Positions 1 through 36,918 of a stretch of 64,000 nt of DNA are shown here, piece after piece (within the stretch, counting starts at the first letter, position 1; each line of letters begins with the position of its first letter). Made by a program: the position numbers and the translations under genes. Below the pieces are notes generated by a model. It did not search any database. It was not told the DNA's origin and worked only from the letters and a program-made list of their open reading frames with translations. This DNA is from Eledone cirrhosa (lineage: Eukaryota), in NCBI GenBank assembly GCA_964016885.1, contig OZ024743.1, positions 339,450,001-339,514,000 on the forward strand, read 5' to 3'.

Positions 1-267
1 TAGCAGCTTGCTTCACACACTGCTTTCCTCGGTGCAGTATTGGCAACATTTGATTTAAGATTTTCACAGCTGTTAGAATCAAAAATATTTTTTTAATATA
101 TTAAAAAAGCATTCAACTTCAATATTTGTATTGTATAACAAAGACAATGTCTGGTTATCACAACAAAAAATGTCTAGCTATAAAGACACACACACAGGTG
201 TATGTATATGTATGTATATATATATATATATATATAGAAGTGGTTACTCAACAGTTAGTTCACCATA

Positions 268-307
268 CCGAGAACAATTGTTTCACCTTCGCGGATCTTC
301 AGCTCGG
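268..307 (-). ncRNA. Minimal type I hammerhead ribozyme, minus-strand copy
   Basis: The reverse complement reads CCGAG-CUGAAGA-UCCGCGAAGGU-GAAA-CAAUUG-UU-CUCGG, identical to 395-434. Confidence 0.75.
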
Positions 308-394
308 GATGTGTATGGTTATAGGAACAAGAAGGACAACCATACGATGCGCGTTCGTACGGTTGTCCTTCCTGTTCCTATAAACATACACATC

Positions 395-434
395 CCGAGC
401 TGAAGATCCGCGAAGGTGAAACAATTGTTCTCGG
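395..434 (+). ncRNA. Minimal type I hammerhead ribozyme, plus-strand copy
   Basis: Stem I CCGAG/CUCGG, core CUGAAGA (400-406), short stem II CC/GG with a U.U base, GAAA (418-421), palindromic stem III ACAAUUGU, GUU triplet with predicted cleavage after 429. Confidence 0.75.
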
Positions 435-531
435 TATGGTGAACTAACTGTTGTGTAACCACTTCTACCCAACTCGTCCCTTGGACTGAGTGCTCTGCCA
501 CTACGGATATTACCTTCCAGTGTTCCACCAC

Positions 532-563: not shown

Positions 564-3462
564 AATGAAATTATTGTGTAAAGTGCTCAGGTGCACTACA
601 ATTCGTCAATATAGTACATAGAATAATACACAAATGTCAGGGAAGTACATGTGTGTATGTGTTAGCTGTAGTGTTGGCGGATCTCGGAAAGCATGGAGGC
701 CTTAAAGGATGCAGTGTCTCGACAGCTAACAACTGATGCAGGTAGTTTGTTCCATGCTTCAGCAACTCTGAGCGTGAAAAAATGTTTCCGAAAGTCATGG
801 GAACTGTGCTGTTTTCTTACTTTGTGGGCATGTCCACGTGTGTTAGACACATGGAAATCGAAAAGGTACTCAGGGTTGTTGTTGGCAACATGGTTAACAA
901 TTTTGTGGGTGTTTACCAAGTCAGTTGCCAGGCGTCGGAGCTTCAATGAATCCATGCCCAGGGAAGCAAGGCGCTCAGAGTATGGTAGATGCCTGATGGA
1001 GGGTATTCGCTTGGTTGCACGTCTCTGAACAGTTTCCAGGCGGTCAATGTCCTGAGCAAGATAGGGGTTCCAGACTGGTGATGCAAATTCTAAGTGTGGT
1101 CGCACCATAGCTGTATACAGCCTTAAATAGATATCTGGAGAGCGGCTGACAAAGGTCTTGCTGAGTGATGCTAAGACACCCTCGGCCCTCTTGACAATTT
1201 TAGAGACGTGCCTCGTCCAACGCAAATCGCTGCTGACCGTAATGCCCAGGTCACGTTCACAGGAAGACTTCTTGATATTAGTGCTGTGGAGGGAGTATGT
1301 GGACGCTGGGTTTTTACTCCCAAAATGCATGGTGGTGCACTTGTCTACAGCTAGCTTGAGTTGCCAGTCTGAGATCCACTGTTGCATTGTGTCCAGGTCA
1401 GACTGCAAACAAGATCTATAGTGTTCAGGATCTGTCCTTTTTATTTCAAGGTACAGCTTGATGTCGTCTGCATACTTTAGTACTGTGGCATTCCTTAAGT
1501 TGGCATCTATGTCATTAATATATGCCACAAACAAAAGGGGGCCAAGAAGAGATCCCTGTGGTACACCAGATGACATCTCATATGGTGAGGAATGCTGTCC
1601 CAGAATCGTGACTACCTCTCTTCGACTGAGAATGAAGGACTTCAACCAGTTAAAAAGATCATCCTTCACACCCATTGCAGAGAGTTTTGCCATAAGCCTT
1701 TTGTGTGGCACAGAATTGAAGGCCTTCGCAAAGTCAAGGTAAACAACATCCACCCATGAGCCGCCATCAGTGATCCGGGTGATGTCCTCAAGGAACTCTA
1801 TAAGTTGATCACAGCAGCTGGAGTTGGAGATAAATCCAAATTGCGAGGGCCGGATAAGACTGTGAGAGCTCCAGAAGTTCCAAAGTGTTTCTCTGACACA
1901 GGATTCCATCAGTTTGGCGATGCAACTAGTAAGACTGACTGGACGATAGTTCACAGGTGATGTGCGGTCACCCTTTTTGAACAGAGGAATGACACTGGCA
2001 GTTTTCCACTGTTCTGGAGTAGCACTGTTGTTCAGACAGAATTGGAAGAAGCGTGATAACTGGTGTAGAAGGAAGTACCCACCACGTTTAAGAAGCAGGT
2101 ACGTAACACCATCAAGACCAGGACAGGCATGGTTGCGTTTATTTTTTAGGTGACGTCGCAGCATTGCAGGTGTAAATTCCATGGTTGTAATAGAGTCCGG
2201 TGTCATAGGTGGTGGAGATGGTACACTCTGGTCTTCAATAGTGAAAATGCCTGCATAGCATTCAGCAATGAGCTCTGCGCATTCCTTGGGGTCGTCAGTA
2301 ACCTGGCTTGTGTGGGGATTGCGAAGAGGACCAACTGGAGAGTGAGGCCTCTGCTTTGAGTGAACATACTTCCAGAACACCTTACTGTCAGGGCTGGTTG
2401 CTATGCGCTGCTCAAATTGAAGCACTGCCTTTTTTGTCACCTGTTTGAGGTGGTTGGACGATCTATTTCGCCTCTTCCTATTAATGTCTGATTTGTGAAG
2501 TGTGTACTCACGTTCAGCATTGTGCCGTTCTTTTCTGACAAGACGGACTGCTGCAGTCACCCAAATTGCGCTTTTGGGATGTTTTTTCCGCTTACATGGC
2601 ACCGATGCTGCACATGCTGTCCACATTGAGCTCAGGATGTTCTGGAGTACAGTGTTGACATCTCCAGAGTCGTAGAACTCAAGCCAGTTTGGCCGTTGCA
2701 ACTCGGTGCAGTAACAGTTCCAGTCTGCTTTATTCCAGTCAAAGTGAGCAGTTTGGAGATGGTTGTGGTTCTTGTTACTGCCCATGAGGGATAGATTGGC
2801 AATGATCATAGCATGATCAGAGTCACCTAAAGGTTCCTCAGCAGTAACACTAATGACCGTTTCAGGAGTAGTGGTGAAGAGTAGGTCCAAAGTGTTGTCA
2901 CCTCTCATTGGGGAGGTGACCACCTGGGACCAACTTGAGTCCAGCACAAGCTCAAGGAAGTCATTTGCACTTGGCGGCCAACGAAAGGTCTCCCAGTCAA
3001 TCTCAGGGTGATTGAAGTCACCTGCAATGAAAACATAAGTGGCTGTCTTCCTGGCAGCAGCTCTGAGGATATCACAAAGTTGAGTGTCCTGATGGTAATT
3101 TGGGGGACGGTAAACAACTCCAAGTAGCAGTGTTGACATGGTCATACGTATATCGCAGAAAAAAACTTCCTGCTGTGATTGGTTCAAATCAGCACAAGGA
3201 ATTGCCGACAGATTTGACCGAACGTAGACCATTACACCACCACCACCACAATTAATTCGGTCTTTACGAAACAGGTTGTAGCCAGTCATGCTGAAAACCC
3301 CATCACAGAGTAAGGGATGTGCCCAAGTTTCCGTGACTGTAATGAAGTCCGGGTTGATACTTTTGACGTAGGAGTCAAAAAGATGAATCTTATTGCATAG
3401 ACTACGTGCATTCAGGGACAACAATTTGTACTTTGATTCCAGTCTATGATTATGTGCAGATA
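547..3462 (-). mobile_element. CR1-clade non-LTR retrotransposon, 5'-truncated just upstream of the endonuclease (no ORF1), with a short 3' UTR and (ATT)n tail
   Basis: APE-RT ORF; (AAT)n at ~548-566 on the + strand; (TA)n tracts on both sides. Confidence 0.9.
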
Positions 3463-3496
3463 CATATATATATATATATATAAAAGTAAGAGACAC
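662..3496 (-). CDS. CR1 ORF2: AP endonuclease + reverse transcriptase, uninterrupted (the first ~12 codons of the called ORF are flanking microsatellite)
   Basis: Motifs NARSL, VTETW, GDFNHP, LDLLF, SDH; NYRPVSLTS, YLDFAKAF, GVPQGSLLGP, YADD; CR1-type C-terminus RKHFFTLRVAEAWNKLP. Confidence 0.92.
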   Translation of the reverse strand: MSLTFIYIYIYVSAHNHRLESKYKLLSLNARSLCNKIHLFDSYVKSINPDFITVTETWAHPLLCDGVFSMTGYNLFRKDRINCGGGGVMVYVRSNLSAIPCADLNQSQQEVFFCDIRMTMSTLLLGVVYRPPNYHQDTQLCDILRAAARKTATYVFIAGDFNHPEIDWETFRWPPSANDFLELVLDSSWSQVVTSPMRGDNTLDLLFTTTPETVISVTAEEPLGDSDHAMIIANLSLMGSNKNHNHLQTAHFDWNKADWNCYCTELQRPNWLEFYDSGDVNTVLQNILSSMWTACAASVPCKRKKHPKSAIWVTAAVRLVRKERHNAEREYTLHKSDINRKRRNRSSNHLKQVTKKAVLQFEQRIATSPDSKVFWKYVHSKQRPHSPVGPLRNPHTSQVTDDPKECAELIAECYAGIFTIEDQSVPSPPPMTPDSITTMEFTPAMLRRHLKNKRNHACPGLDGVTYLLLKRGGYFLLHQLSRFFQFCLNNSATPEQWKTASVIPLFKKGDRTSPVNYRPVSLTSCIAKLMESCVRETLWNFWSSHSLIRPSQFGFISNSSCCDQLIEFLEDITRITDGGSWVDVVYLDFAKAFNSVPHKRLMAKLSAMGVKDDLFNWLKSFILSRREVVTILGQHSSPYEMSSGVPQGSLLGPLLFVAYINDIDANLRNATVLKYADDIKLYLEIKRTDPEHYRSCLQSDLDTMQQWISDWQLKLAVDKCTTMHFGSKNPASTYSLHSTNIKKSSCERDLGITVSSDLRWTRHVSKIVKRAEGVLASLSKTFVSRSPDIYLRLYTAMVRPHLEFASPVWNPYLAQDIDRLETVQRRATKRIPSIRHLPYSERLASLGMDSLKLRRLATDLVNTHKIVNHVANNNPEYLFDFHVSNTRGHAHKVRKQHSSHDFRKHFFTLRVAEAWNKLPASVVSCRDTASFKASMLSEIRQHYS

Positions 3497-3806
3497 ATAT
3501 GATAAGAATAGAGGAGAAAGAACTATGATATAGAACTATGATAGTATATTAGATGCCTATAGCCGAAGCAAAGTGTGCTTGATACTTACAGATGCAATGT
3601 TAAATATTATAATGGAGTTAATATTTAAAGAAAGTTAAATGCAGAAGGTAAGCAGAACGGGTATAATCAAAAATATATGGAGTAGAAAGCAAGACATTTA
3701 AAAACATTTATTCTTGAAGAATAAACGTATCATGAATGTATAGCTTCATTTTGCTGTTGTACGAATTGGTCTTTCCCTCCAGCAGCATCGTTAAAGACAA
3801 TAATTT

Positions 3807-12900: not shown

Positions 12901-13744
12901 TTCTGATAAGATGTGGAGATTTGGCTGTTATTTCTAGTATCTCTAGTGAGACGAATTAATTCGTGGAAAATAGTAGAGAGTAATATGAAGCACAAAATAG
13001 CCAAAATAAAAATAGAAGTTTTGAAACATGTTCTTTGCAGAATTGTAAATCTCCTTGTTCAAAACATAGAATTCAGAAGAAAAAAAAGTTACGGACATTT
13101 ACATGTGGGTATTTATATCGAAACTTGCGTTATCCTTTATTTAATTTAAATAACTAACAAGATTCATTGTTGAAAAACAAAACAAAAAAAAATAAACCAA
13201 CTGATTAATAATTATTTCTCAAAAATGACTTGACCTTACCTCAAAGGACAGCATTGTATTACACCGGCGGTGTAACAGCAATAAACACATTCATCGTTAT
13301 CATTCCGGCTGAGTTGCCGGTGAGAAGCGTTAAACCGTAAAACCATATGAAAGTGAGTCGAGGTAAGAGGTAATGTATAGAAGTTTATTCAACAAATTTC
13401 AGTTAAATTATGTGCTATGTTAGCAATAAAATTCTCTAAATTAAATAATAAAAGTAGGGTGAAGTAGGAGGGGGTTGTAGTCTCTGCACGCCAATATAAA
13501 CGATATATTTCAGCTGTTAGTGTATTGGTGGTCTTATGGGTAGTTTAGGTTGTATTTATACATTCTGAATGTACAGATGGAATTAGGATTTCATCCTATG
13601 TTAGACATTAAGTAGTTTTTATTTTCAATTATTTAAAATCAATTAGCGAGTCTTCTTCTCCTTTCCACGTATTGGATGTTGCAGTAAAGGTGAGGGTTAC
13701 TGCACCGGTAGCTTAATGGAATAAAATTCTAAAATATCAGGAAT

Positions 13745-14303
13745 TATCGGCGCCAGCATCAGGGCCACTCTCAATATGAGGGGCTCCATCCTCTGTGTGT
13801 CCTGAATACAGCAACTGTTCTCCGGATGAAAGTATCAGCTGTCCTATCTCTAACCACCTTGTCTCACTCAATCTTAGTACTCCTATCTTGTAGTTCTTCA
13901 TCTCCCTCGCTACTTGAACGGTCTTTCCTGTTTCATGTAGAAATTTTTGTTGTCTTGGGTGTGAGAAGGGTGGGAGTCGCCTGGCAGTTTCCTCTCGGCT
14001 TTCATTGCGCTGCGTCGTATCTCTCCAAGATGGAGACCCTTCCTCTTCAATACCTGTCTGAGGCGCATGCACAACATCAAATGGCTGAAGATCAATAGAT
14101 GATCTGTGGGAGCGAGCGGGACAGGGACAGTGGCAAAGCAGATTCTGCGGAGGAAGTGGAACTGGATTGGACATACCCTCAGGAAACCAGCATGTGGAAT
14201 CCAACTGGAGTGGAGTAGTGAGAGCAGCCCAGGATCGTGTATGATAGCTAAGGGTTGTCAATGACCGATGCTTCACAGAAAGCGACTGGGCTGAATGAAT
14301 GAA
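13745..14303. mobile_element. Rearranged RTE LINE: endonuclease fragment on the - strand joined to a 3' end on the + strand with a (TGAA)n tail
   Basis: Minus: ETGKTVQVAREMKNYKIGVLRLSETRW..LLYSGH. Plus: FNTCLRR..LRRKWNWIGHTLRKP, then TGAATGAATGAA. Confidence 0.75.
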
Positions 14304-14304
14304 A

Positions 14305-14516
14305 GGCAACAAAGTGGCAGAGTCGTTGGAGCCTTGGATAGAATGCTTTGTGGTATTCTCTCCGGGTCTCGGCTCTCGGTGTTCAAATCCCGCCGAGGTC
14401 AACTTAGCCAAATCACGTACGAATAGCTTATTAATACGCCAAGCAAGTAGCTTGGCTACACCTTTCATCCTTTCGATGTCGATGAAAAAAAGTATCAGTC
14501 TAGTACTGGAGTCAAT
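14305..14516 (+). mobile_element. tRNA-derived SINE
   Basis: A-box-like TGGCAGAGTCG, B-box GTTCAAATCC, body CCGAGGTCAAC..CCTTTCATCCTTTCG; related copy at 23190-23310. Confidence 0.65.
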
Positions 14517-14782
14517 TCTTCTTCCATATCTCTTCTTCACTTCCACACTCTCTATCCTTCTCTGGAAGAAATCTTCTGTGTTCAGACTTGGAGAGAGATG
14601 GGCGCCACCAGGCTTAAAATGCTCAAGAAACGCCGTGTGCAACTACGGCGCCCATGTAACTCCATCAGGAGTTTACGTGACCATACCATATATTTAAGGG
14701 GGGTAATGATAAATATTAGTTTAATAATGTGGTGGTTTGCTTGGTTTATTGTGATGGTTTAGTAAGGGTGCGAAGATGAGTC

Positions 14783-16728: not shown

Positions 16729-19700
16729 TCACATAAAAATAGTTTGGCAGAACTTTTTGGGCCAGTGGACTCTCCGACCGGAACGGGTCGTCGTCTTGTA
16801 TGTAGGTGAAGGTGGGGCAGAAGGAGCAGGTGTATGCACAAGAGAGAAAGATTGGGGTATTTGTGGCTCGGGTGTATGAGCGTCATTGTGTGCCTTTTTT
16901 AGTCTATCCACCGAAATTGTCTCTCTGGACTCCTTAACGTCTACAGTGAAATGTTTGTCAGTACGTGCTAACACACGGTAGGGTCCAGAGTATGGTTGTG
17001 AGGGGTGGTCTCACAGCATCGTTCCTTATGAACACATGGGTCCACGAGGCAATATCCCTTGGGACCGCAGGTTGTACAGTTTGTTTCCTCGTATCCATCG
17101 GCGGCAGGTCCTGAAAATAAGACCGCAGACGGGATACGTAGGAAAGCGGATCTTGGAAAGCAAGATCAACAGGAGCAAGCATTTTGCCCAGGCAACGCTA
17201 GAGGTGCACCGTAAAGTAATTCGACCGGGGAGAACCCCAGGTCCTCCTTTATTGATGACCGAATTCCTAACAACACAATAGGAAGGTACTCGCTCCAACG
17301 TTGAGAGTCTGGAAAGGCGCGAAGAGCGGCCTTTAATTGGCGGTGGAATCGTTCCACCATTCTGTTTGAAGAAGGATGATAGGCTGTGGTCCGAATCCGT
17401 TGAGCTCCAATTATCTTTGTGAGCTCAGAGAAGAGATGGGACTCGAATTGTCTACCACGGTCTGTGGTGACTGTAGTTGGTACCCCAAAGCGGGTAATCC
17501 ACCCTGATACCAGGGCACGTGATACAGTTTCAGCAGTCATATCTTGTAAGGGGATGGCTTCAGGCCATCGCGAAAAACGATCGACACAGGTCAATATGTA
17601 TGAATATCCACTGCTGAATGGCCAAGGTCCAACGAGGTCAATGTGTATGTGCTGAAACCGAGCATCAGAAGTACTGAAAGTACCAAGTGGAGTCCGGATG
17701 TGTCTATGGATTTTCGATTTCTGGCAAGCGATGCAGGAACGGTACCAAGCAGCAATGTCGCGCCTCATATTTGGCCAGAAGAATCTGGCTGTTATGAGCT
17801 TTACTGTGGCAGCAGATCCTGGGTGAGAAATGTTGTACAAAGCCAGGAACACAATTCAACGGTGAGGCTCAGGAACAAGTGGTCGTGGTGAATCCGTAGA
17901 TACATCACATAGAATCTGCCTGTTGGTGGTGGACAAGGGCAGATATTTGAAAATGCAAGTCGCAAATTCAGCAGAAAGAGTGTCCAACGATTGGAGTGCA
18001 GGTTGGTCTGCAGCTAAACGACCTAAGTCGATCTCCTGGGATGACGAGATGGAGCTGATTGGCAAACGTGACAATGCGTCTGCCGCTATGTTGTGCGAGC
18101 CGGCAATGTGCTGGATATCGTTTGTAAATTGTGAAACGTAGTCCAGGTGTCTTGTCTCTCTGGGCGAATATCTGTCGGCTTTGGCCCTCAAAGCGAAGGT
18201 CAACGGTTTGTGGTCGGTAAAAACTGTAAAATTTCTCCCCTCAAGAATATGAGAGAAATGTTTCACCGACAGATATATGGCTAATAATTCCCGCCCAAAC
18301 GTGCTATAACGCGTTTCTGCTGGTTTCAGCTTCCCCGAGAAAAATGCCAAAGGTTGTTGCTTTTCAGCGTAGGACTGCTGTAAAACTGCTCCCACAGCGG
18401 TATCAGATGCATCAACACAAAGCGAAAGCTTGGCCTCTGGTACCGGGTGGGTACCAGCTTGGCAGTCTGGGAGTCTTGAAGCTGTTCTTGTGTCAAGGAA
18501 ATATCCTCATTCTTCTTTCGACGATTTTTAAAAATGTCAGTAAGGGAAGACAGCAAATTAGCACAATGAGGAACGAAACGCCTATAGAAATTGATTAGGC
18601 CTAAGAAGTGACGCAACTGGTGAAGTGAAGTAGGCGGAGGTAACTCCTGTATGGCTTGAACTCGCTGAGGGAGCGGCCTAATACCTTCGGCGTCGATGAG
18701 GTGGCCTAAAAAATTTAGGGAAGTGGAACCGAAAACACACTTTGCTGGATTCACACGAACGCGGTAATCCTGAAGTCGCCGAAATAAGAGATGCATGTGG
18801 CGCATATGCTCTTCAGGAGAGAAACTAGCGACGAGAATATCGTCTATGTAAGCATAAACGAAGTCCAGACCACGAGTGACCTCGTCTATGAACCGCTGAA
18901 AAGTGGTAGCGGCGTTCCTGAGTCCGAAAGGCATGGTAAAAAATTCGAAGGATCCGAAAGGGGTTGTAATCGCCGTTTTCGGAATATCCTCCTTCCTGAC
19001 CGGAATTTGGTGGTAGGCTCGCACTAGATCTAGCTTTGAAAAAATCTTACACCCCTGCAGTGAAGATGCAAAATCCTGGAGATGGGGAATGGGATACCTA
19101 TCCGGGACGGTCATGGCATTTAACCTCCTATAATCCCCAGTGGGTCTCCAGTCGCCGGAAGTCTTGGGCACCATGTGTAACGGTGAAGCCCAAGGACTCG
19201 TAGATGGGCGAATAATGCCCAGCTGCAGCATATGGTCGAACTCGGACCGTGCTGCCTTTAATTTTTCCGTCGGTAAGCGGCGTGGACGCGAAAACACTGG
19301 AGCACCGGTGGTGGAAACGAAATGTTCGGTTGAGTGTGTTGGCTCAGTGACTCGAAAATTTCCATCCGTGAGCTCCGGGAAAGAACCCAGCAACGAATGG
19401 TAGGTGTCTCCAGCGGCAGCGATAAAGAATATGGGGCTGACTATTGGAGCATTGGCTTCCTGACCACGAATTGAAAAGCCGGAGATGTTGTCCACCAGGC
19501 GTTGGCCACGGACGTCCACAGTTAAAGAGAAGTTGTGTAGGAAATCCGCTCCTAAGATGGGGTATGGCAAATCGGCAACCGTAAAAATCCACTTAAAATC
19601 CCTACGAAGATTTAGGAATTTGAGAGGAAGCGAGATTTGCCCGTACGTCTTTATCGACGAGTGGTTAACTGCCTGCAGCGTAACAGATGACTCTATGGGG

Positions 19701-19850
19701 GTATCTTTCAGGCAATGGACCGACCAAATACTACAGGAGGCTCCTGTATCCACGAGGAAACCTCTTCCCGACATTAGGTCCTTAATGAAGAAATGGCGGT
19801 TTGGTGGCTTTATGTTGAGGTCAACTGTCCCCATCAGCGGACCTCTTAGA
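16729..19850 (-). pseudogene. pol: Gypsy-1 pol (protease, RT, RNase H, integrase with GPY/F module), frameshifted
   Basis: FLVDTGAS; [34 protein letters not shown]; TDHKPL, ADALSR; SHPG..CIAC, HIDLVGP, TDRGRQF, VERFHR; TRSGRRV. Confidence 0.95.
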
Positions 19851-20636
19851 CGTTTCCCGCCTTATGAAAGGAGCAAGGTTGCACGCAGTGATTCGCGCTC
19901 TCAGCAAATCGCTCGTGGTACCAGCATAAAGACGAAGCTGGTGATTTTGAACGACGTCTAAAACTTTGCGATCTCCCGCGACTGCGGGGGCGCGGACGGG
20001 CACCACACAAGGCCTTCATCTTGTAGAGCTCTATGGTGAGTTCCTGAATGGACCTTTGCATCGCCATAATGGTTGAGCTGTCTATTGGCGCTGCCGCGTA
20101 GATGGCATGGCCGAGTGTGGCCCGAGCTGGGTGGTGAACAGCGGCAAGGGGTTCGCTGCCTCCGGCACTCGTCACCTCGAAAACTTTGTCCGCATAGGCG
20201 GCAAGCTGATCCACCGTGCTTGTATCTCTCATGAGGGCCAAAATTGCCTGTACGTTGGTCGGCAGGCGCGAGAAGAACAACTGCTTCAGCAGGGCAGTTT
20301 CCGCTACCGACCCCTCCGTTAGGTCCTTCATTCGCCTTAGGAGATTCGATGGGGTGCCATTCCCTATATGCTCCAGATGGATCAAAGCCATAAACCTTTT
20401 TTCTGCAGACTGTTCTGTTCGGCTGAGTGTTTCAGCCTTCAGAGACGTGTACGCCGAGTCTGTGGGTGTCTCTAACACCAGGTCCTTAATTGCTGGGAGA
20501 ATTGCGGAATTGCACTAAGGACCAGAGGACGTTGTAGTTCCTCGTCAACTCTGTTCGCCTTGAAAAATGCTTCGAGTTGGGCAAACCATAGCCTTACGTC
20601 GCCCGTGTACGTTGGCAGAACACAGTGAGAAGCCAT
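19846..20636 (-). pseudogene. gag: Gypsy-1 gag (interrupted near its 5' end)
   Basis: MASHCVLPTYTGDVRLWFAQLEAFF.., PSNLLRRM, FFSRLP, Arg/Ser-rich tract, CWYH..C..PC knuckle. Confidence 0.85.
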
Positions 20637-23339: not shown

Positions 23340-26300
23340 GGGGCTGTTGTTGGTGGTGGTGGTGTTATTAGTGGTGGTGCTGCTGTTGTTAGTGGTGGTG
23401 CTGCTTTGTTAGTGGTGGTGGTGGTATTATTAGTGGTGGTGGTGTTATTAGTGGTGGTGCTGCTGTTGTTAGTGGTGGTGCTGCTGTTGTTAGTGGTGGT
23501 GGTGGTGGTGTTATTAGTGGTGGTGGTGGTGGTCTTATTAGTGGTGGTGGTGGTGTTATTAGTGGTGGTGGTGGTGGTGTTATTAGTGGTGCTGCTGTGT
23601 TGTTAGTGGTGGTGCTGCTGTTGTTTAGTGGTGGTGGTGGTGGTGTTATTAGTGTGGTGGTGTTATTAGTGGTGGTGCTGCTGTTGTTAGTGGTGGTGCT
23701 GCTGTTGTTAGTGGTGGTGGTGGTGTTATTAGTGGTGGTGGTGTTGTTGTTAGTGGTGGTGGTGGTGTTATTAGTGGTGGTGGTGGTGTTATTAGTGGTG
23801 GTGCTGCTGTTATTAGTGGTGGTGGTGGTGGTGTTAGTGGTGGTGGTGGTGTTATTAGTGGTGGTGCTGCTGTTATTAGTGGTGGTGGTGGTGGTGTTAG
23901 TGGTGGTGGTGGTGTTATTAGTGGTGGTGGTGGTGTTATTAGTGGTGGTGCTGCTGTTATTAGTGGTGGTGGTGTTGTTGTTAGTGGTGGTGGTGGTGTT
24001 ATTAGTGGTGGTGCTGCTGTTATTAGTGGTGGTGGTGTTGTTGTTAGTGGTGGTGGTGGTGTTATTAGTGGTGGTGCTGCTGTTATTAGTGGTGGTGGTG
24101 TTGTTGTTAGTGGTGGTGGTGGTGTTATTAGTGGTGGTGCTGCTGTTATTAGTGGTGGTGGTGGTGGTGTTAGTGGTGGTGGTGGTGTTATTAGTGGTGG
24201 TGGTGCTGTTATTAGTGGTGGTGGTGTTGTTGTTAGTGGTGGTGCTGCTGTTATTAGTGGTGGTGCTGCTGTTGTTAGTGGTGGTGGTGGTGGTGTTATT
24301 AGTGGTGGTGGTGTTATTGTTAGTGGTGGTGGTGGTGTTATTAGTGGTGGTGCTGCTGTTATTAGTGGTGGTGCTGCTGTTGTTAGTGGTGGTGCTGCTG
24401 TTGTTAGTGGTGGTGGTGGTGTTATTAGTGGTGGTGGTGGTGGTGTTAGTGGTGGTGGTGCTGCTGTTATTAGTGGTGCTGCTGCTGTTGTTAGTGGTGG
24501 TGGTGGTGTTGTTAGTGGTGGTGGTGTTGTTGTTAGTGGTGGTGGTGGTGTTATTAGTGGTGGCGCTGCTGTTATTAGTGGTGGTGGTGTTGTTGTTAGT
24601 GGTGGTGGTGGTGGTGTTATTAGTGGTGGTGCTGCTGTTATTAGTGGTGGTGGTGGTGGTGTTAGTGGTGGTGGTGGTGTTATTAGTGGTGGTGGTGCTG
24701 TTATTAGTGGTGGTGGTGTTGTTGTTAGTGGTGGTGCTGCTGTTGTTAGTGGTGGCGCTGCTGTTGTTTAGTGGTGGTGCTGCTGTTGTTAGTGGTGGTG
24801 GTGGTGTTATTAGTTGTGGTGGTGTTATTAGTGGTGGTGCTGCTGTTATTAGTGGTGCTGCTGCTGTTGTTAGTGGTGGTGCTGCTGTTGTTTAGTGGTG
24901 GTGCTGCTGTTGTTAGTGGTGGTGGTGGTGTTATTAGTGGTGGTGTTGTTGTTGTTAGTGGTGGTGGTGGTGGTGTTATTAGTGGTGGTGCTGCTGTTGT
25001 TAGTGGTGGTGCTGCTGTTGTTAGTGGTGGTGGTGCTGTTGTTAGTGGTGGTGCTGCTGTTGTTAGTGGTGGTGCTGTTGTTGTTAGTGGTGGTGGTGGT
25101 GTTGTTAGTGGTGGTGCTGCTGTTGTTAGTGGTGGTGCTGTTGTTGTTAGTGGTGGTGCTGCTGTTGTTAGTGGTGGTGCTGCTGTTGTTAGTGGTGGTG
25201 GTGGTGTTATTAGTGGTGGTGCTGCTGTTGTTAGTGGTGGTGGTGTTGTTAGTGGTGGTGGTGTTGTTGTTAGTGGTAGTGGTGGTGTTGTTAGTGGTGG
25301 TGCTGCTGTTGTTATTGGTGGTGGTGTTGTTAGTGGTGGTGCTGCTGTTGTTAGTGGTGGTGGTGGTGTTGTTAGTGGTGGTGCTGCTGTGGTTCGTGAT
25401 GGTGGTGGTGTTATTAGTGGTGGTGGTGTTATTAGTGGTGGTGCTGCTGTTGTTAGTGGTGGTGGTGTTGTTAGTGGTGGTGGTGTTGTTGTTATTGGTG
25501 GTGGTGCTGTTGTTAGTGGTGGTGCTGCTGTTGTTAGTGGTGGTGCTGCTGTTGTTAGTGGTGGTGCTGCTGTTGTTAGTGGTGGTGGTGTTGTTGTTAG
25601 TGGTGGTGCTGCTGTTGTTAGTGGTGGTGCTGCTGTTGTTAGTGGTGGTGGTGGTGTTATTAGTGGTGGTGGTGGTGTTAGTGGTGGTGCTGCTGTTGTT
25701 AGTGGTGGTGGTGGTGTTGTTAGTGGTGGTGCTGCTGTTGTTAGTGGTGGTGGTGGTGTTGTTAGTGGTGGTGCTGCTGTTGTTAGTGGTGGTGGTGCTG
25801 TTGTTAGTGGTGGTGCTGCTGTTGTTAGTGGTGCTGCTGCTGTTGTTAGTGGTGGTGCTGCTGTTGTTAGTGGTGGTGGTGCTGTTGTTAGTGGTGGTGC
25901 TGCTGTTGTTAGTGGTGGTGGTGGTGGTGTTAGTGGTGGTGCTGCTGTTGTTAGTGGTGCTGCTGCTGTTGTTAGTGGTGGTGCTGCTGTTGTTAGTGGT
26001 GGTGGTGGTGTTGTTAGTGGTGGTGCTGTTATTAGTGGTGGTGCTGCTGTTGTTAGTGGTGGTGCTGCTGTTGTTAGTGGTGGTGGTGGTGTTGTTAGTG
26101 GTGGTGCTGCTGTTGTTAGTGGTGGTGCTGCTGTTGTTAGTGGTGGTGCTGCTGTTGTTAGTGGTGGTGGTGGTGTTATTAGTGGTGGTGGTGGTGTTAG
26201 TGGTGGTGCTGCTGTTGTTAGTGGTGGTGCTGCTGTTGTTAGTGGTGGTGCTGCTGTTGTTAGTGGTGGTGGTGGTGGTGTTAGTGGTGGTGCTGCTGTT

Positions 26301-26550
26301 GTTAGTGGTGGTGCTGCTGTTGTTAGTGGTGGTGGTGGTGTTATTAGTGGTGGTGGTGGTGTTAGTGGTGGTGCTGCTGTTGTTAGTGGTGGTGTTGCTG
26401 TTGTTAGTGGTGGTGTTGGAATTGGTGATAGAGTTATTGATGGTAGTGATGATGGTGGTGTTGGTATTGGTGATAATGGTGGTGGTATTGATGATAGAGT
26501 AATTGATGGTATTGATGTTGGCATTGGTGGTGGTGGTGGTGGTGGTGTTT
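23340..26550. repeat. 3.2-kb trinucleotide-built minisatellite (GGT/GCT/GTT/ATT/AGT; modal 21-mer GTTAGTGGTGGTGCTGCTGTT)
   Basis: Direct inspection; its long ORFs are artefacts. Confidence 0.95.
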
Positions 26551-27518: not shown

Positions 27519-30500
27519 GATCTTTTGTACAACAAAAGAGCGAAATATCGTATAGTAATGAGCCAGTGGTGCATTTGTCATGACAATAGCCCAAGGAGTG
27601 TCCGGCACGTTGTGAAGTTTGGCTATCATCGAGTATAGGACAGAGTCGATGTAGAAATGATATTGCAAGCTGTGTGTGTCAGGAAGAGAAAAAAGAAATA
27701 AACTATAAAATGACTTTGACCAGTTTTATGCAGGCGTGATGAATGAGCCTGTTGCAATTTGGGTTGAGCTGCCTGTGAATTGCATGACAAAAAGTCTAAC
27801 TGGGTAGTGAAGATAACCGTAATGTGTGAACTGAATGGCCGTAAGCATGCTGCCTAAAAGTAACAGTTTGCTCCACAGCATATGACTTGAGCGAATGCAT
27901 GTGGTAAAAAAATAGCGAGGCATTCTCGAGCTATTGAGTGAATGTGTACGTGAAAAAAGAAGGCCAGTGTTTTGAGGATGCGATTTGTGAAATGCGTGAT
28001 CAAAGAGAAAACGTTTTGTAGTGTAAGAGTTAGAGAGACACAAATATCTATTGCTCAGTGTATGAATTAAAAGGTGAAACAAACGTGGTTTTGTATGTGC
28101 ATGAAAAACAGAATATGTACACGCATTGTATGTATATAAAAATGATGGCAATTACACAATCAATGCTACCGAACAAGAAAAATACAAATTTTTGCAAAAC
28201 AAGAGAGTGAAGAAAAAAAAAAATGATATACACAATGTTTGTTCTTAAATAGAGTTTGTAATAAATAATGTTCATTATAAATAATGTTCTTCGTGACATG
28301 AGCACATGGTCACTAAAAATTGCAATTGTTCAAGCAGAAAGTTCATTGTATTTGAAACTGGAAATAGTAAACACAAGAAAAATGGAAATGTTTTTCACGA
28401 AGAATGATTAAGAAACTCACTTGAGGTTAACGGTAATTCATATATTGTGCCAACTTGGCGGGCCAATGGACGCGTCGTCCGCTTCACGTGACTGGAGATG
28501 AAACAGGTGGCTTGCTGGGACAGCAATCTGTTGGAGTTTCTGGTGTAGAGACTGTAACAGTATCCATGATGGCTTTTTTAATCTGTCCACGCTGACAGAA
28601 TTCTGTTTACCATCTAGATCGAGAATAAAATATTTCGGATATTTTCTTAGAACACGGTAAGGGCCAGAATATGGAGGTCGAAGATGAGCTGAGATGGTGT
28701 CGTTTCGAACGAAAACGTGTCCAATCTTTAATGTCTGAAGGTACGTGTGTGGCCGTGTTCTCCTGACGGGTGCTTGCAGGAGCAAGGTGAGACATATATT
28801 GTCGAAGTAGGTGTACGTATGATCCTGGGTCTGGAACATCCTGAGGAGAGATGGGAGCAACCATCTGACCAGGTAGAACCAGGGTGGTGCCGTACACTAA
28901 TTCTGCAGGTGTGTGTCCGAATTCCTCCTTAACGGTGGATCGAATGCCCAGAAGGATGAGTGGCAGGTATTCAAACCAGTGGGTCTTGTCTGGATATGCT
29001 TTTATTGCAGCTTTCAATTGGCGATGGAATCTTTCCACGAGACCATTAGCTTGCGGGTGATAAGCTGTCGTGCGGATGTGTTTACATCCTAACAGGCGAG
29101 TCAGTTCCCTGAAGAGGTGGGAGTCAAATTGGCGTCCTCTGTCCATTGTTATCTTCGCTGGGGCGCCATAACGTGATACCCAGTGTAAAACCAAAGTTTT
29201 AGCGACTGTTTCCGCTGAGGTATCATTTATGGGAAAAGCCTCAGGCCAACGGGAAAATCAATCTATGCAGGTGAGCAAGTGTGTGTAGTTCTGTGATGGT
29301 GGTAGAGTTCCGACGATGTCGATATGCACATGATGAAAACGTGCATCAGGTTGCGCGAATGTGCCGAGTGGAGTTTTGATGTGTCTGTGGACTTTGGCTT
29401 TCTGGCAGGTAATGCAGCTCCTCGACCTGTCGCGCACGTCCTTGTTAATGTTAGTCCACACAAAACGAGCAGAGCTGAGTTTCTGTGTAGCCCGGATTCC
29501 CGGGTGAGACAAGCAGTGTAAAGCAGAAAAAACTTGTCGACGATTCATCTGTGGTACGTACGGTCGTTCATGACCGGTAGAAAGGTCGCACCAAATTTGT
29601 CCCGAAGAAGGAATGGGAACTTGCTAAAACTTGAGGGATGGCGAATCTCGGAGCTTGATAAACTCTTCGTCAGTCTCTTGGTCAGCTGCGATCTGTTGAA
29701 GGTCGATGCCCGAATGCACATGTATTGCGTTCAGCTGGATTCGGGACAGGGCGTCGGCTGCTACGTTGTCTGATCCCTTGATATGCCGAATATCAGTTGA
29801 ATATTGGGAGACAAAATTCAGGTGTCGGAGTTCTCTCGGTGAATGTCGATCAGGTTTGGTACAGAACGCATAAACTAGTGGTTTATAGTCCATGTAGATC
29901 ACGAAATTCGACCCTTCGAGCATATGCCGAAAATGCTTAACCGAAAGGTAGGTTGACAAGAGTTCGCGGCTAAACGTACTGTATTTCGTTTCTGCAGGTT
30001 GCAACCGCTTAGAAAAGAAGGATAAGGGTTGCCACACGCCGTCGACATGTTGTAAAACGCCTCCAATCCCCGTGTCTGATGCGTCCACTAGCAGCGAAAG
30101 AGGAGCGCCAGACCTGGGGAAAACGAGCATGGAAGCGTTTGCCAACATTTCCTTCAGGCGGTTAAAAGATATTAATTCTTCCTCGTTTAGAGTGATCTCT
30201 TCGTTTTGGCGAGTCCGGTTACGAAGAAAGTCCGTGAGGAGTCTGGCTGCGTCGTAACAATGAGGGATGAAACGCCTATACAAATTCACCAGACCGAGGA
30301 GTTCACGCAGTTTCCGAAGTGATGTAGGTGCAGGAAAACTGCGGATAGCTTCTACTTTCTCGGGAAGTGGACGAATGCCGTCTTTATCAATGATGTGCCC
30401 GAGAAAGGACAGTGAAGGAACGCCGAGAAGGCACTTGCTGGGTTTGATGATGATACCGTACTCAGCCAAACGTTGGAAAAGGAGATCTAAGTGCTTCTCG

Positions 30501-32403
30501 TGTTCTTGCTCGGAAGTACTTGCTACCAGAATACGAAGGGTAGATCACGTAACTCGGTGTCAATAAACCGCTGAAAAGTTTGTGCAGCGTTGCGCAGACC
30601 GAACGGCATTCGCAGGAATTCAAATAAACCGAACGGTGTTGTGATTGCGGTCTTCGGAATATTTTCAGGCTCCATAGGTATCTGGTTATATGCACGCACC
30701 AAATCTATCTTGGAAAAGATGCGTGCGCCTTGCAAAGAGGCAGAAAAGTCGTGCAGGTGAGGTACAGGGTAATTATCGGGTACTGTAGAATTGTTAAGTG
30801 CACGATAATCCCCACATGGTCGCCAATCATTCTCGTTTTTTTAGGAACAAGGTGTAGGGGTGCAGACCAGTTGCTGGAGGAAGGGCGAATGATTCCGAGG
30901 TCCAGGATGTGTTGGAACTCCTGTTTGGCGATTCTCAATCGGTCTGGAGGTAGTCTCCTTGGTCGGGCAGATGTGGGTGGTCCTCTTGTCTCGATGTGGT
31001 GTGTGACACTATGCTTAATAGGACCATCCTTAAATACCGGGCGAGTGATGTCTGGATATTTCTGGAGAATGCCGTTGTACCGCGAAGATTCTGACTGGCA
31101 AATTACAGGGCTCACTGTGGATTGCGTGGTAAATATACCTCTCACAGTGAGGTTTGTGGTGGTGTCAATAAGCCTCCGGTTCTTCATATCCACCAGAAGG
31201 TTGAAGTGGTGGAGAAAATCGGCTCCTAGGATAGGGGTCGGCAGGTCTGCCACGACGAACACCCATTGAAAACGCCGCCTCAGGCCTAAATTGAGGGTCA
31301 GTGATTTTTCCCCGAAAGTCGGAATTGAAGATCGATTCACTGCCTGCAGAAAGGACGGTGTTGGGTGTCTTTTGCCCGAGATTAGTGAAACAGGAATAAC
31401 ACTAACCTGGGCTCCTATATCCACGAGGTAACGGATGCCTGTCGCTTGGTCGTTAATAAAAAATAGACGACTTTTCTTCTCAGTACCAGGGGTGAACGTC
31501 GTCGCTAGGCCCTGGTCTGCCCGTTTCCCTGGGTGATATTCGGGAAAGAACATGGGGCCCTACACTTAGATGCCTGTGCGCCGAATTCTTCGTGATACCA
31601 GCAGAGGTTGCCAGACACACGATTTTGACTGGGACTTCTCGATCTTCGACGGTGAAAGGGCCTGGATCGACTGTTGCTGCGCCGCCGGTGTGTTTGAAAG
31701 GTCAGGTTCTCTAATTGGTTTGAGAGGGCTTTAATTTGACCAGCCTGCTCTCTGATCATAGCCCGCACCTCTGAAATCTCGGAGGTGGAGTCCGAGGACG
31801 CTACGTAAGGATTCGTTCGACGATCTACCTGTGCTACTGAGGCAAAAGGGTTTGACACCTCAGCGATCTTATCTGCGACACTCGCCAGTTCTTCTGGGGT
31901 TGCTGACTCGTTAGTCGACGCCAGAATGCCCTGCATCGATAAGGGCAAGCGCTGTATAAATAGCCGTTTCAGCAGATCTTCTGAAAGCGGCTGGTCCTCC
32001 ATCAGCTGTCTCATCTTTCGCAATAGTTGGGACGGTTTTCTGTCCCCCAATTCTTCTGCAGACACGAGTTGGTTGAGTCGTTCTCTGCTATGACGCGGTC
32101 GTCCGCTTGATCAATTCCTTGCGGAATGATTCATATGACACCGTACCCGGCGGTACCATGACGAGGTCCCTCACCTCAGCCAAGACTTCTAGCGGGACAG
32201 ACCCAATGATGTAGGTGAGCCTTGCGGAATCGCTCTTAATTCTGTTAGCGGCGAATTGCGCTTCTATGTGAGCGAACCACAGAGTCGGGTCGTTGGACCA
32301 AAAAGCGGGGACTTTCAATGTTAAAGCCGCTTGTGTGGTTGGTATCTCGGCCTCTATCGTTGTTTGTGACATGTCCATGTCGGTATCTTCTTAGGTGCTG
32401 TCT

Positions 32404-32870: not shown

Positions 32871-35386
32871 TTTTCAATGTTTGTATACATACATGACCTC
32901 CTTTCCAACGCAAGAGACATACAGATACATATGTATATATTGATGTACAGTGGGGTGACATATATTATATTATTTCTGAATGGCAATTTAAATTCAAAAA
33001 TTAAAACTAAAATACAACATCAATGCAAATTTAAAATACAATCGGCAGTTAACGTAGATAATGCTAGAGGATAGTTTGTTAGTCAGTTGTAGTAGATATT
33101 GTATGCATTAGTTACACGTGGGGCATGCGCGTGTGTCTTATTTATATATAATTATTGTGCGGCAGGGTGTTATATGTAATACAAGCACTTTAAACGAGTA
33201 ATCAAGAATATTATGGAGGTTGTAGTGGTAAGGTATTTTTTGTATATGATAAAGAAGCATGTGTGCAGAGAAATAGTATAAATGAGAAGCAAAATAATGT
33301 TATGGTTTTTGTATACACCACCATTTTCACATTCAGGAAACGTAATATATAGTTTATATGTCCTTCACATAATTAACGATGATTCCGTATTGGATGTTTG
33401 ATGTATTAAGTTAAATTATTATAGCTTGTTGCGGCTCAGTGTTCTTTCATCCAATTTTATAGAGCAGGTTGTTTCTGTTGCGAGAATTTACATCGTTTTA
33501 TTATCCGGAAGTATGTGTGTGATTAAGGGGAGTTAATGCGTGAGGGGAGGTAACTAGCTGATTTCTATAACTAAATTTATTATTCCAACATACATTAAAA
33601 GGTGTCTCAATTGAGTCCCTTATATATACGGTTATATTTTAAACATTTGACATGTATATGAAGAAATATAAGGCAATAAATGAAGAAAACAGAAAATAAA
33701 TAAATAATATAATAAAATAATTAATATAATTTGTATAATTTGAAAATAAATAAATAAATAGAGAATAAAGAATAAAGAATAAAGAATAAATGAAAAATTG
33801 GTGAAAAAGTAATGAAAGTAATGAAAATGAATATGGAGAATTGAGAAATAATGTAGGATAAAGTGTGTGTGTGTGCTATAACCAATCTCAAGGTCAGAAT
33901 ATGTTGGATAGATTGGTATGAGACAAGATGTTAAGATGAGATATTCAAACTAAATGTGTTTGTGTTATAATCAATCTCAACTTAAAAATAAATATAAGGT
34001 GATACAGTGAAGAGGGCAGAAAACAAATAACAAATTAATAAAGAGAAATCAAGATTTAAGATTGGAACTTGAAAATCAGAAATCTAGTAAATTAAAAGTG
34101 TTTGTGTTATAGATGTTGGCCAAATTATTATGGCTGTGTCCGATTCTATCTCGAGGGTCTCGTTCAGGCATAGTTTGCATATGCAAGATCCCCCTTTATC
34201 GGTTGGTACTTTCCTGATTATATACCAGGCCAGAGAGTATGGGGTCCTGTCCAGCTTAAGCTTCCAGATCAGGTCGGAGAGAGCTGTGCTTTTCCTTTTG
34301 GCCTCCTTCTTGAATGAATTGCGATGGTTGTACCAGCGGTACTTAAAGCTCGTTGATGTGGCTCCTATGTAGAGGTGTTCGGAGTTGGGGGTTTTAACTC
34401 TATAACCGTACACTAGGTTCTTCTTGAGGCATTCATTACCAAGGGGGCATGATTCGGGGTTTCTGCAGTTGCAGAGGGTGGTCGGCCTCTGCGTGCCTAG
34501 ATTAGGGTTCCCGTTATGTGTTACATGCTGGTCTTCCCCCAGACTCGGTGGGGGGGGGGGGGTCCTCGGGTCTGTTTGGGTTTCTTGGGTGGGCTCTGGG
34601 TCCCCCCTTCCCTCCTTTCACATGGTTCTGCTGAGTGTTTGTATTGCCATCTTCTGGTTGTGTGTGGTTTTTAAGCCTACTTCTGTTGATGCTAGCTATG
34701 TGTTGGGCCAAATTTCTCGTGGTGGAATACGAAAGCTTCACAGTGTGTCTGTTGAAGATCCTGTGGTATCTGTGGTCCCTCGGGAAGCATTTGTCAAGTG
34801 CTCCAAAGAATAATCGGGCCAAGCTTTTCTTTAGGGCCGCTGAGTAGAGTGGGTTGTACCACGTGATTTGTCGGTGTCTCCTCCTATATGTGTAGGTCGG
34901 GGGGTTCGTGATTTGTTGGAGATTTGTTGGGTTGCTGGTGGTTTCCGCACTGTTGCTTCCCCTTTGGGCTCTATGCTTTTTGTTATCTTCGCGGCCCGAA
35001 TTTGTGGGGTGGTCGTTGTCCGCCCCGGGAGATCCATCGTAGGGTGGTCGCCCGTTTCCTCCCCTCTCCCACGTGTCCTTCGGTTGGGGTCGTCCGTCCT
35101 GGGGTGGTTAGCGTCACGCCTGAGACTGCTACTCATATTGTGCTCCATCTCGTGGTCAAGCGCACTAGTCCCCACCGCCCGTGTGGTGGTGTCGGGTACA
35201 TGATGCCTATTTGATTCTGCTCTGCCTGTATTGTTAGGGTTCGCCCTCCCCCCTCGGGCAACGCGGGTGTGGGTGTCTGTTGGGCTATCCACCTCCCGGC
35301 TTTTCGGACTATATGTTATATTTTGTCCATGTGCCGCCTTCTTTAGAGCTGCGTTGTAATATTCCGCGTGGTTATTGAATATTTCC

Positions 35387-36718
35387 TTACTTGCGGACAG
35401 GATCTCCTGCCTTGGTTATGGATCTAGGGTGGTTTGATTTGGCGTTAACATATACGAGTTTCTCGTTGGGCTTGTGGTAGGGGTAGTATTGCTCGGTGTT
35501 CAGGTTTAGGGTGGTGTCTAGGAAGTTAACTACCTTCCTATTTGGGTCTATTTCTATGCTGAGCCCTTGGTTCTTAAAGAAATGGCGAATACGCCTCCTC
35601 ATACCCTCCAACATATTGGTGTTGTGGTCATATACTGTGAATAGAGCATCGTCACGATATAATCCGCCGCCCAGGCAGGGGATTTCATCTTTTATCTGGT
35701 TCAGCAGGTAGAGCCCAACCAGGTCAGTTACCTGCGCTGAGTCGCTGGAGCCCATCGTGATGTCAACGTTATTTGGCCAATCACTCCTGGTCCAAAGGTC
35801 TCCATCGAAGCGGATTAAGGTCTTTCTTGCGGCGTGGATGATGCTCACCTCCTCTCGGGTTAGGTCCGTATTGGACATCGCTAAAAATAGGGCCTTATTA
35901 AGTACTATGGGTGAGATTGAGGAGTAGTAGCTTGCGATGTCCAGTTGTATAAAGCTGGTCCTACTTATCTCATGCAGTATTTTGAACCATTCTATTACTT
36001 CTCTCGTGCATGACCATTGCTGTAATTTGGTTTTCTTCCGAAGCTTGGGCAAAATCCTATCCAGTATTCTTTTACTGACGATCCCTAGGTCAGATCTGGA
36101 GGGGGCTATTAGTCTGACAGGGAGGTCGGACTCAAAGTTTGGCTTGTGGTCTTTAAGGGTAATCCGCGGCTCCCTTCGTTGGTATGGGGCCGTCCTGTCC
36201 TCTATGCCGATTCTGGATATAATCCTGTAAGCTGTGGCATTGATCTCATCCAGGGTAAATCCAGGTGTTTTTTTGTAGCACTTCCTCAGTTCCCTGAGGA
36301 TTAGCTTATTGTACAGTTCAGTGTTCATGTTGTAGAGGTTGTTTGTTTTGTCAGCATGGACAAGTATTCCAGTTGTCCCTTTAAGTACTGTAATCCGGTT
36401 TCTCAGGTGTCTGAGGTACTCCTGACTTCTGGTTGGTTTTCCGGAGAATTTGAGGTTGGATATGATGTTAATCATCTCGTTTTCAAACTCCTCCATTAGT
36501 CTGTTGTGGGGGGGGGGGGGGGGATTCCTCCTTGATCGAAAAAGGTACTCCATGTTTTGTGTGTTGGTAATTTTCTGCGTTCCTCTTTCGAAGTGGAACG
36601 CCTTCCATCTCATCCTAAAGATGAGGGAGTCTGTGCTCTTGATGAGATCACTGGTGTAATCTCGTTTATCAGGTAGGGGGATGGCCTTCAGTGACGCTAA
36701 GGTTGCCAGTTTATCCAT
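35387..36718 (-). CDS. Penelope-like reverse transcriptase (open through the thumb, then frameshifted)
   Basis: 443-aa ORF with the PLE RT motifs listed above. Confidence 0.85.
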   Translation of the reverse strand: MDKLATLASLKAIPLPDKRDYTSDLIKSTDSLIFRMRWKAFHFERGTQKITNTQNMEYLFRSRRNPPPPPHNRLMEEFENEMINIISNLKFSGKPTRSQEYLRHLRNRITVLKGTTGILVHADKTNNLYNMNTELYNKLILRELRKCYKKTPGFTLDEINATAYRIISRIGIEDRTAPYQRREPRITLKDHKPNFESDLPVRLIAPSRSDLGIVSKRILDRILPKLRKKTKLQQWSCTREVIEWFKILHEISRTSFIQLDIASYYSSISPIVLNKALFLAMSNTDLTREEVSIIHAARKTLIRFDGDLWTRSDWPNNVDITMGSSDSAQVTDLVGLYLLNQIKDEIPCLGGGLYRDDALFTVYDHNTNMLEGMRRRIRHFFKNQGLSIEIDPNRKVVNFLDTTLNLNTEQYYPYHKPNEKLVYVNAKSNHPRSITKAGDPVRK

Positions 36719-36918
36719 AGTGACTTAGGTCCGCTACTGTTTGGAGCGCTCAACCCGTGTGGGAGCTAGATAGATTTTGAGTTTATGTTGGTTGTATACC
36801 AACACCTCAGTATGCAGGCTGGGGCACTCGACGAAGTGCGCAGGTTGATTTGGTTACTCCGGAGTAGTGTAAAATAAAGTTAAATAAAAGTCAAATGATT
36901 AAAATTAGCTTCGTTTAT

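Follow-up and report, generated by a model that had tools for sequence, protein, structure and literature searches.

Two head-to-head 3' ends of a Penelope-like element form a hairpin in (TA)n repeats, probably through priming by both target strands at insertion

Two truncated 3' ends of a Penelope-like element (PLE), assignable by its motifs to the Hydra clade, lie head to head within (TA)n at positions 235–531 of the window, by which we mean the whole 64-kb stretch of DNA (64,000 nucleotides) analyzed here. This arrangement was probably made once, at insertion, by both target strands priming on the RNA of a single donor, and its hammerhead ribozymes are predicted to be locked. Its parent family and target were identified, its outer ends are fixed, its junction is single-copy, its layout is frequent in the family and both of its arms belong to one subfamily.

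The insertion is 297 bp long (235–531) and consists of a tail-less 3' end inverted against a tail-bearing one. The left target flank, a (TA)n-type microsatellite at 201–236, overlaps the terminal TA of the element and is followed by the inverted, tail-less 3' end on the minus strand (235–347, reference 2401–2513, located by the inverted repeat and by mapping onto the element reference). The forward 3' end, placed by the same mapping, occupies 347–467 on the plus strand (reference 2393–2513; in the right arm the reference position equals the window position + 2046) and continues into the 64-nt PLE tail (468–531, plus strand, reference 2514–2577), which is present on this arm only and borders the (TA)n microsatellite of the right target flank (532–549). 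On the reference, the locus reads 2513 to 2401, inverted, joined to 2393–2577. An inverted repeat was recovered at 235–347 and 355–467 with the dimensions first reported for it, namely arms of 113 nt, four mismatches and a spacer of 7 nt. The arms are 96% complementary, and the mismatches lie at 360/342, 372/330, 384/318 and 454/248. Folding of 230–540 gave -215.3 kcal/mol (z -28.65), an energy equalled by 0 of 100 shuffles. The junction (347–354, plus strand) has an overlap of 1 nt (A347), and the 7 nt of the loop belong to the normal sequence of the element (reference 2394–2400), where they make up half of the native GCGCATGCGC palindrome. The locus copy contains no ORF and carries about six private changes in 290 nt, spread over both arms; the window contains no further piece of the PLE family besides the hairpin. 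An open 957-aa ORF encoding an APE endonuclease and reverse transcriptase (RT) of the LINE type lies nearby (665–3535, minus strand) with its 3' end towards the hairpin, and read-through from it would transcribe the hairpin.

The preliminary description had proposed the copy number of the loop junction as a test of whether the hairpin is a multicopy unit, and the exact junction was found once in the genome. Ten loci have a loop near the same position; their junctions all differ, and no hotspot of perfect palindromes at GCGCATGCGC was seen among them. A chimeric origin of the foldback, in the assembly or in a long read, is exceedingly improbable. In runs X1 and X2, the contigs contain the left flank (1–193) without a difference and lack both the junction and the private alleles of the left arm, as would be expected of a chimera, and none of the short-read contigs of runs X1, X2, X3 and X5, which drop rare variants of deep repeats, covers 332–343 at 99% likeness. 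However, the X1 and X2 contigs do include other inter-arm joints of the family, the left arm ends exactly at the family tail-less end, without tail, the two flanks differ, and the arms differ from each other at four sites. Ends that are asymmetric and typical of the family speak against a chimeric read.

We searched the genome for relatives of the forward arm and found that the preliminary reading of the hairpin as a Penelope derivative was correct. The segment 355–531 has a full-length match of at least 98% in all 40 scored copies (2124 candidates in the 3.0-Gb genome), and in all 30 fetched copies the position equivalent to 531 is the last one before (TA)n, with many extending upstream into an ORF for RT and endonuclease. 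A near-complete natural copy (L175:2879–5455) represents a 2577-nt monomer and was used as the reference. The parent has a single ORF, with RT followed by a C-terminal GIY-YIG endonuclease, in less than 3 kb, as in the Hydra clade. This ORF contains the motifs RWR (RWK in relatives), DKT, YRDDG, CxCx5C (CSCRKPEAC), CxxC (CGLC) and CxH (CPH) together with a GIY-YIG-like stretch and a YVG..R..H motif; the Hydra-clade criteria given in section 11 of PMC8557442 are RWK, DKT, a CxCx5C linker, and CxxC and CxH around conserved E and N. The family also has the (TA)n target and the canonical hammerhead in the pLTR that characterize this clade. Database proteins matching the parent protein at E 1e-20 or better numbered 1080, the best 120 being 37–50% identical to it. 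Relatives carry PF26215 and PF28514; in Pfam the parent ORF itself had no RT or GIY-YIG match, and there was no fully intact copy among the loci fetched. By the motif criteria of the clade, the parent is classified as a young Hydra-clade PLE with a 2.6-kb monomer and thousands of 3' ends. It shares the monomer of <3 kb, the motif set and the (TA)n target with the C-terminal EN+ PLEs of the Hydra clade described by Craig et al. (2021, PMC8557442), such as Hydra-1_Obim, whose protein resembles that of the parent as judged by eye, and Penelope-13_HM; it differs from them in its thousands of ends and in its tail, which is 64 nt here and 30–40 nt in that account. Copies of the family are repeated within segmental duplications at G000:C1 143.3–143.8 Mb (spaced by ~55–60 kb) and 206–213 Mb (L125–L127). 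A second, distant Hydra-type PLE ORF (RWK, DKT), 33% identical to the parent, lies at 35390–36724 of the window on the minus strand and extends downstream to ~34300, interrupted by a low-complexity stretch near 34900–35300.

Each strand of the hairpin carries the same hammerhead, free of mismatches, as originally stated: the 40-nt motifs at 395–434 (plus strand) and 268–307 (minus strand) are identical, and the mismatches between the arms all fall outside them. The motif comprises stem I, CUGAAGA, a stem II of the form U-CC-loop-GG-U (U.U and 2 bp), GAAA, a palindromic stem III and GUU. Everything required of a type I hammerhead (CUGANGA, GAAA, NUH and stems I–III) is present, and the earlier identification of a type I hammerhead with palindromic stem III in an inverted pLTR stands, the inverted part being the tail-less 3' end. 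From the GUU triplet the cut is predicted after 429, in agreement with the first prediction, and after 273 on the minus strand. In 184 fetched copies, the common variants within the motif affected N7, loop II and the outer edge of stem I. The Rfam hammerhead search suggested at the outset gave no match at the gathering score in the 64-kb window, and the 19 matches up to E 10 at 150–650 included no hammerhead family, only sub-threshold microRNA models of hairpin shape. Most of the 3' hammerheads of Hydra-clade PLEs in File S2 of PMC8557442 share the ctga-n-ga-t ... t-gaa core of the one described here, yet the hammerhead sequence of this family is unlike every one in that file, Hydra-1_oBim included.

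The active hammerhead fold was not favoured in any of the folded RNAs. Forcing it in the full hairpin costs 81.6 kcal/mol, the probability of stem I is 0 in either hairpin transcript and 0.004 in one arm with its tail, and the 49-nt hammerhead piece has a folding z of 0.19. Whichever strand is read, the antisense arm is the first part to be transcribed. Folding predicts that both ribozymes are locked inactive in the full hairpin, and with one cut site per strand no monomer or circle would be released. PLE hammerheads are described as cutting weakly, as dimers or with protein help. An analogy drawn earlier with viroid-type RNAs is probably superficial, given this order of transcription and the energy needed to form the hammerhead. 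A host role as a source of hairpin RNA (for siRNA or as an A-to-I substrate), perhaps through LINE read-through, is very unlikely; the 113-bp duplex and the open 957-aa APE-RT ORF directed at the hairpin are compatible with it, but the locus is not distinguishable from hundreds of siblings and its private changes lie on both arms.

To place the locus within its family, we analyzed the exact element ends that adjoin TATA, which occur at 1470 genomic sites for the tail-less end and 2203 for the tailed end. A sample of tail-less ends (90 of the first 100 sites listed, all on contig C1, with flanks of 1.5 kb for 30 sites and 5.5 kb for 60) was reduced to 87 by dropping three segmental duplicates. 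A tailed arm stands opposite 47 of these ends; a further 26 were classed as solo or unresolved, and 14 as complex. The head-to-head span is ≤320 nt in 33 of the 47 facing pairs, that is, in 33 of the 87 sampled insertions, and the strict ribozyme pattern is found on both strands in 5 of these short hairpins, on one strand in 10 and on none in 18. Head-to-head is the commonest layout of the family, and short hairpins such as this one are not a rare oddity. Genome-wide, a pattern testing hammerhead 5' halves only retrieved 275 loci with two such halves pointing outward, 4–34 nt apart, a count that leaves out the studied locus with its longer spacer. The first 50 of these tight hairpins have 47 distinct junction strings, indicating that the head-to-head layout is rebuilt at each insertion, and 45 of the 50 have one tailed arm. 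With hundreds of like hairpins that have different joints, the studied locus probably arose as an ordinary by-product of insertion.

This variety of junctions bears on the possibility, raised in the preliminary description, that the hairpin is an undescribed non-autonomous mobile unit; such a unit would be transcribed and re-inserted whole in the manner of a MITE or retrozyme. The hairpin does retain the tail and the two start sites of reverse transcription, one junction string is seen three times among the 50 tight hairpins, and a CAGCTG-centred junction was found at 37 loci genome-wide. Against this, the junction of the studied locus is single-copy and the ten loci with a nearby loop all differ, as do most of the tight hairpins (47 distinct junctions in 50). 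The 37 CAGCTG junctions span both core variants, which fits a microhomology hotspot. The three repeated junctions (L298, L309 and L344) are in the same orientation at unrelated loci, where each of the two arms stops at reference 2438 and carries an extra G and one further base, and private alleles common to the three were not seen by eye. A mobile hairpin or MITE would be expected to have the same internal structure in many copies at unrelated sites; this was not found, and we regard this explanation as highly improbable. An inversion at insertion, the last option of the preliminary description, fits best.

Further evidence on how the arms arose came from 106 head-to-head pairs retrieved by end-anchored searches, a few of which are neighbours and not one insertion. 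One tailed and one tail-less end are combined in 95 of the 106, and other combinations account for 11. At the outer ends of both arm types the next bases of the element are TA. In 54 informative pairs, after 15 complex or duplicate loci had been left out, the two arms have the same base at 279 of 288 subfamily sites, compared with a disagreement of 47% in shuffles. Separate donor RNAs for each arm were rejected on this agreement in subfamily. As exceptions to the one-tail rule, three near-full-length insertions (L160, L166 and L170, the same as L184, L183 and L182) have the tail on the inverted partner, and their forward copy starts within the tail. Two other loci (L036 and L041) have, at the inner end, several repeats of short pieces of the 3' region, as if re-primed repeatedly; in L036 the repeated pieces alternate with (TA)n.

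Arkhipova et al. read PLE head-to-head palindromes as the result of self-priming on an antisense template (PMC3846280), and in such a process the inverted arm of the same element, at the same insertion, would come from snap-back of one cDNA or antisense RNA, after which the endonuclease would trim one end and leave a tail on one side. Besides this published proposal for PLEs, it is consistent with 19 cases of rare alleles common to paired arms and with the recurrence of junctions at native palindromes, such as the 37 CAGCTG-centred ones and that of the locus itself, in the GCGCATGCGC palindrome. Nevertheless, we consider self-priming unlikely. In the 47 facing pairs the tail-less arm reaches further 5' in 13, the tailed arm in 12, and the two are similar in 22; either arm can extend further, and a single snap-back cannot produce such pairs. 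The extra G on both arms at the same coordinate in L298, L309 and L344 also suggests independent run-offs.

Twin priming is what we infer for the locus from its structure. In this mechanism the GIY-YIG endonuclease would cut both strands of (TA)n, and the two target 3' ends would prime at TA dinucleotides of the template, one at the end of the tail and the other 64 nt further upstream. The resulting cDNAs would both stop early and be end-joined with zero to a few nucleotides of microhomology. Work on a purified PLE protein reported that it cuts and extends both strands, with two internal start sites, one at each boundary of the tail, and that its activity is independent of ribozyme cleavage (PMC11167929).

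In order to shed light on where the cDNAs stop, we compared the 87 tail-less ends with a sample of tailed ends (90 of the first 100 tail sites listed, 89 after one duplicate had been dropped; one more likely pair was kept). Inner ends cluster at reference 2411–2450 both among the tail-less arms (37 of 87) and among the tailed arms (30 of 89). The end rate in this zone, which was picked post hoc, is ~0.016 per nt at risk, compared with 0.001–0.004 on either side, and the median inner-end coordinate is 2438 in both arm types despite lengths of 76 and 130 nt. The commonest stop of the family, just 5' of the ribozyme, probably represents the capped 5' end of the RNA. Arms ending at the ribozyme cut (reference 2474–2478) are rare, with 2 of 87 tail-less and 1 of 89 tailed arms, and ribozyme-cut RNA was rejected as the main template on these counts. 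The base preceding A2438 is the template C in 3022 cases and G in 262 of the 573 non-C cases. At a control C located six bases further upstream, a manual count gave G in 24 of the first 100 (Fisher p 2.6e-5 for the comparison). Inspection of 30 loci with this G identified 29 true ends and one substitution, and in 3–4 of them the G could come from the partner arm. Of the 14 ends that tight hairpins have at 2438, 10 show the G; in the end-anchored samples an extra G at 2438 was not enriched (2/7 compared with 17/54). PLE start sites have been located in the pLTR, and in L1 studies an extra untemplated G is taken as a mark of the mRNA cap (PMC11702581, PMC9341517).

From these data we infer a capped start site at A2438. 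We lean, by a narrow balance of probability, towards a model in which the template is a capped transcript, uncut by its ribozyme, with its start 4 nt before stem I; two RTs would prime on both target strands, at +76 and +140 of this transcript, and run off its 5' end with addition of an untemplated G before the products are joined; the mini-hairpins would then record the PLE mechanism. If so, the hammerhead would sit at the 5' end of the transcript, and the model would account for the abundance of hammerheads, solo and paired, in animal genomes. No description of cap-marked run-off in PLEs was found in searches of the open-licence literature. The equivalent of A2438 at the studied locus (392, plus strand) was read through: the locus reads 37–45 nt past the peak, indicating that the template reached further upstream, and the cDNA would have been joined within the native palindrome. 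The junction of the locus is not accounted for by run-off to the cap, as it is located beyond the main stop zone. A TGCGCATGCGCG palindrome is located ~45 nt upstream of A2438, and it presumably resembles an NRF1 site.

The joints of the family point to twin priming on capped, uncut RNA, with an exact predicted start site. L1 twin priming yields two pieces copied from different regions of the RNA, whereas here one and the same region is copied twice, starting at two fixed internal sites. The proposed extension of both target ends and their joining by microhomology, and an untemplated G at the RNA 5' end, are features in common with L1 (PMC11702581, PMC9341517). Inverted PLE copies and hammerheads on both strands have already been published (PMC8557442, PMC4209133). 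Truncated inverted copies and a tail on one side are usual in PLEs, and the PLE insertions in fig. 2 of PMC8557442 and in PMC3846280 have head-to-head arms, a tail at one end and palindromic or microhomology junctions, as here. The locus likewise has an inverted 5'-truncated copy beside a forward copy, with a tail at one end; compared with these published insertions, its arms are the last 113–185 nt only, which accounts for the 7-nt loop and the lack of an ORF. In the Hydra element Penelope-13_HM, the same hammerhead is listed on both strands as a result of an attached inverted copy (File S2 of PMC8557442). A short-range pair on opposite strands is also shared with the dual minimal hammerheads of Schistosoma, which lie 100–700 bp apart and were taken as truncated PLEs (Cervera and de la Pena, 2014, PMC4209133), although here stem III has a 6-nt palindromic insert, stem II has 2 bp, and a U.U replaces G10.1-C11.1. 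Animal non-LTR retrozymes resemble the hairpin in being non-coding, PLE-related and a few hundred nucleotides long, with a type I hammerhead, but they are described as head-to-tail tandems with two cut sites on one strand and a circular RNA (PMC7229834; bioRxiv 10.64898/2026.07.22.740005). By contrast, the locus is inverted and single-copy with one site per strand, and neither tandem units nor two hammerheads on one strand were found there. The locus itself is ordinary, one among hundreds of dead stubs, and the junction evidence at the family level matters more, since the junction statistics bear on the origin of the inverted ends and tails of PLEs and on hammerhead cutting of the template. 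Hundreds of perfect hairpins, if transcribed, would be a ready source of dsRNA against a young element.

Elsewhere in the window, two LTR-retrotransposon-like pol regions (RT, RNase H and integrase) with several open frames are present at 17169–20514 and 29627–31559, both on the minus strand, and a 301-aa open frame at 13740–14642 (minus strand) had no Pfam match. A 21-nt minisatellite of ~147 copies at 23343–26415 has extreme GC and AT skew and long open frames on both strands. A strand-asymmetric satellite array with an 11-nt period, ~2430 units and 27% GC occupies 37207–64000 and runs off the end of the window.
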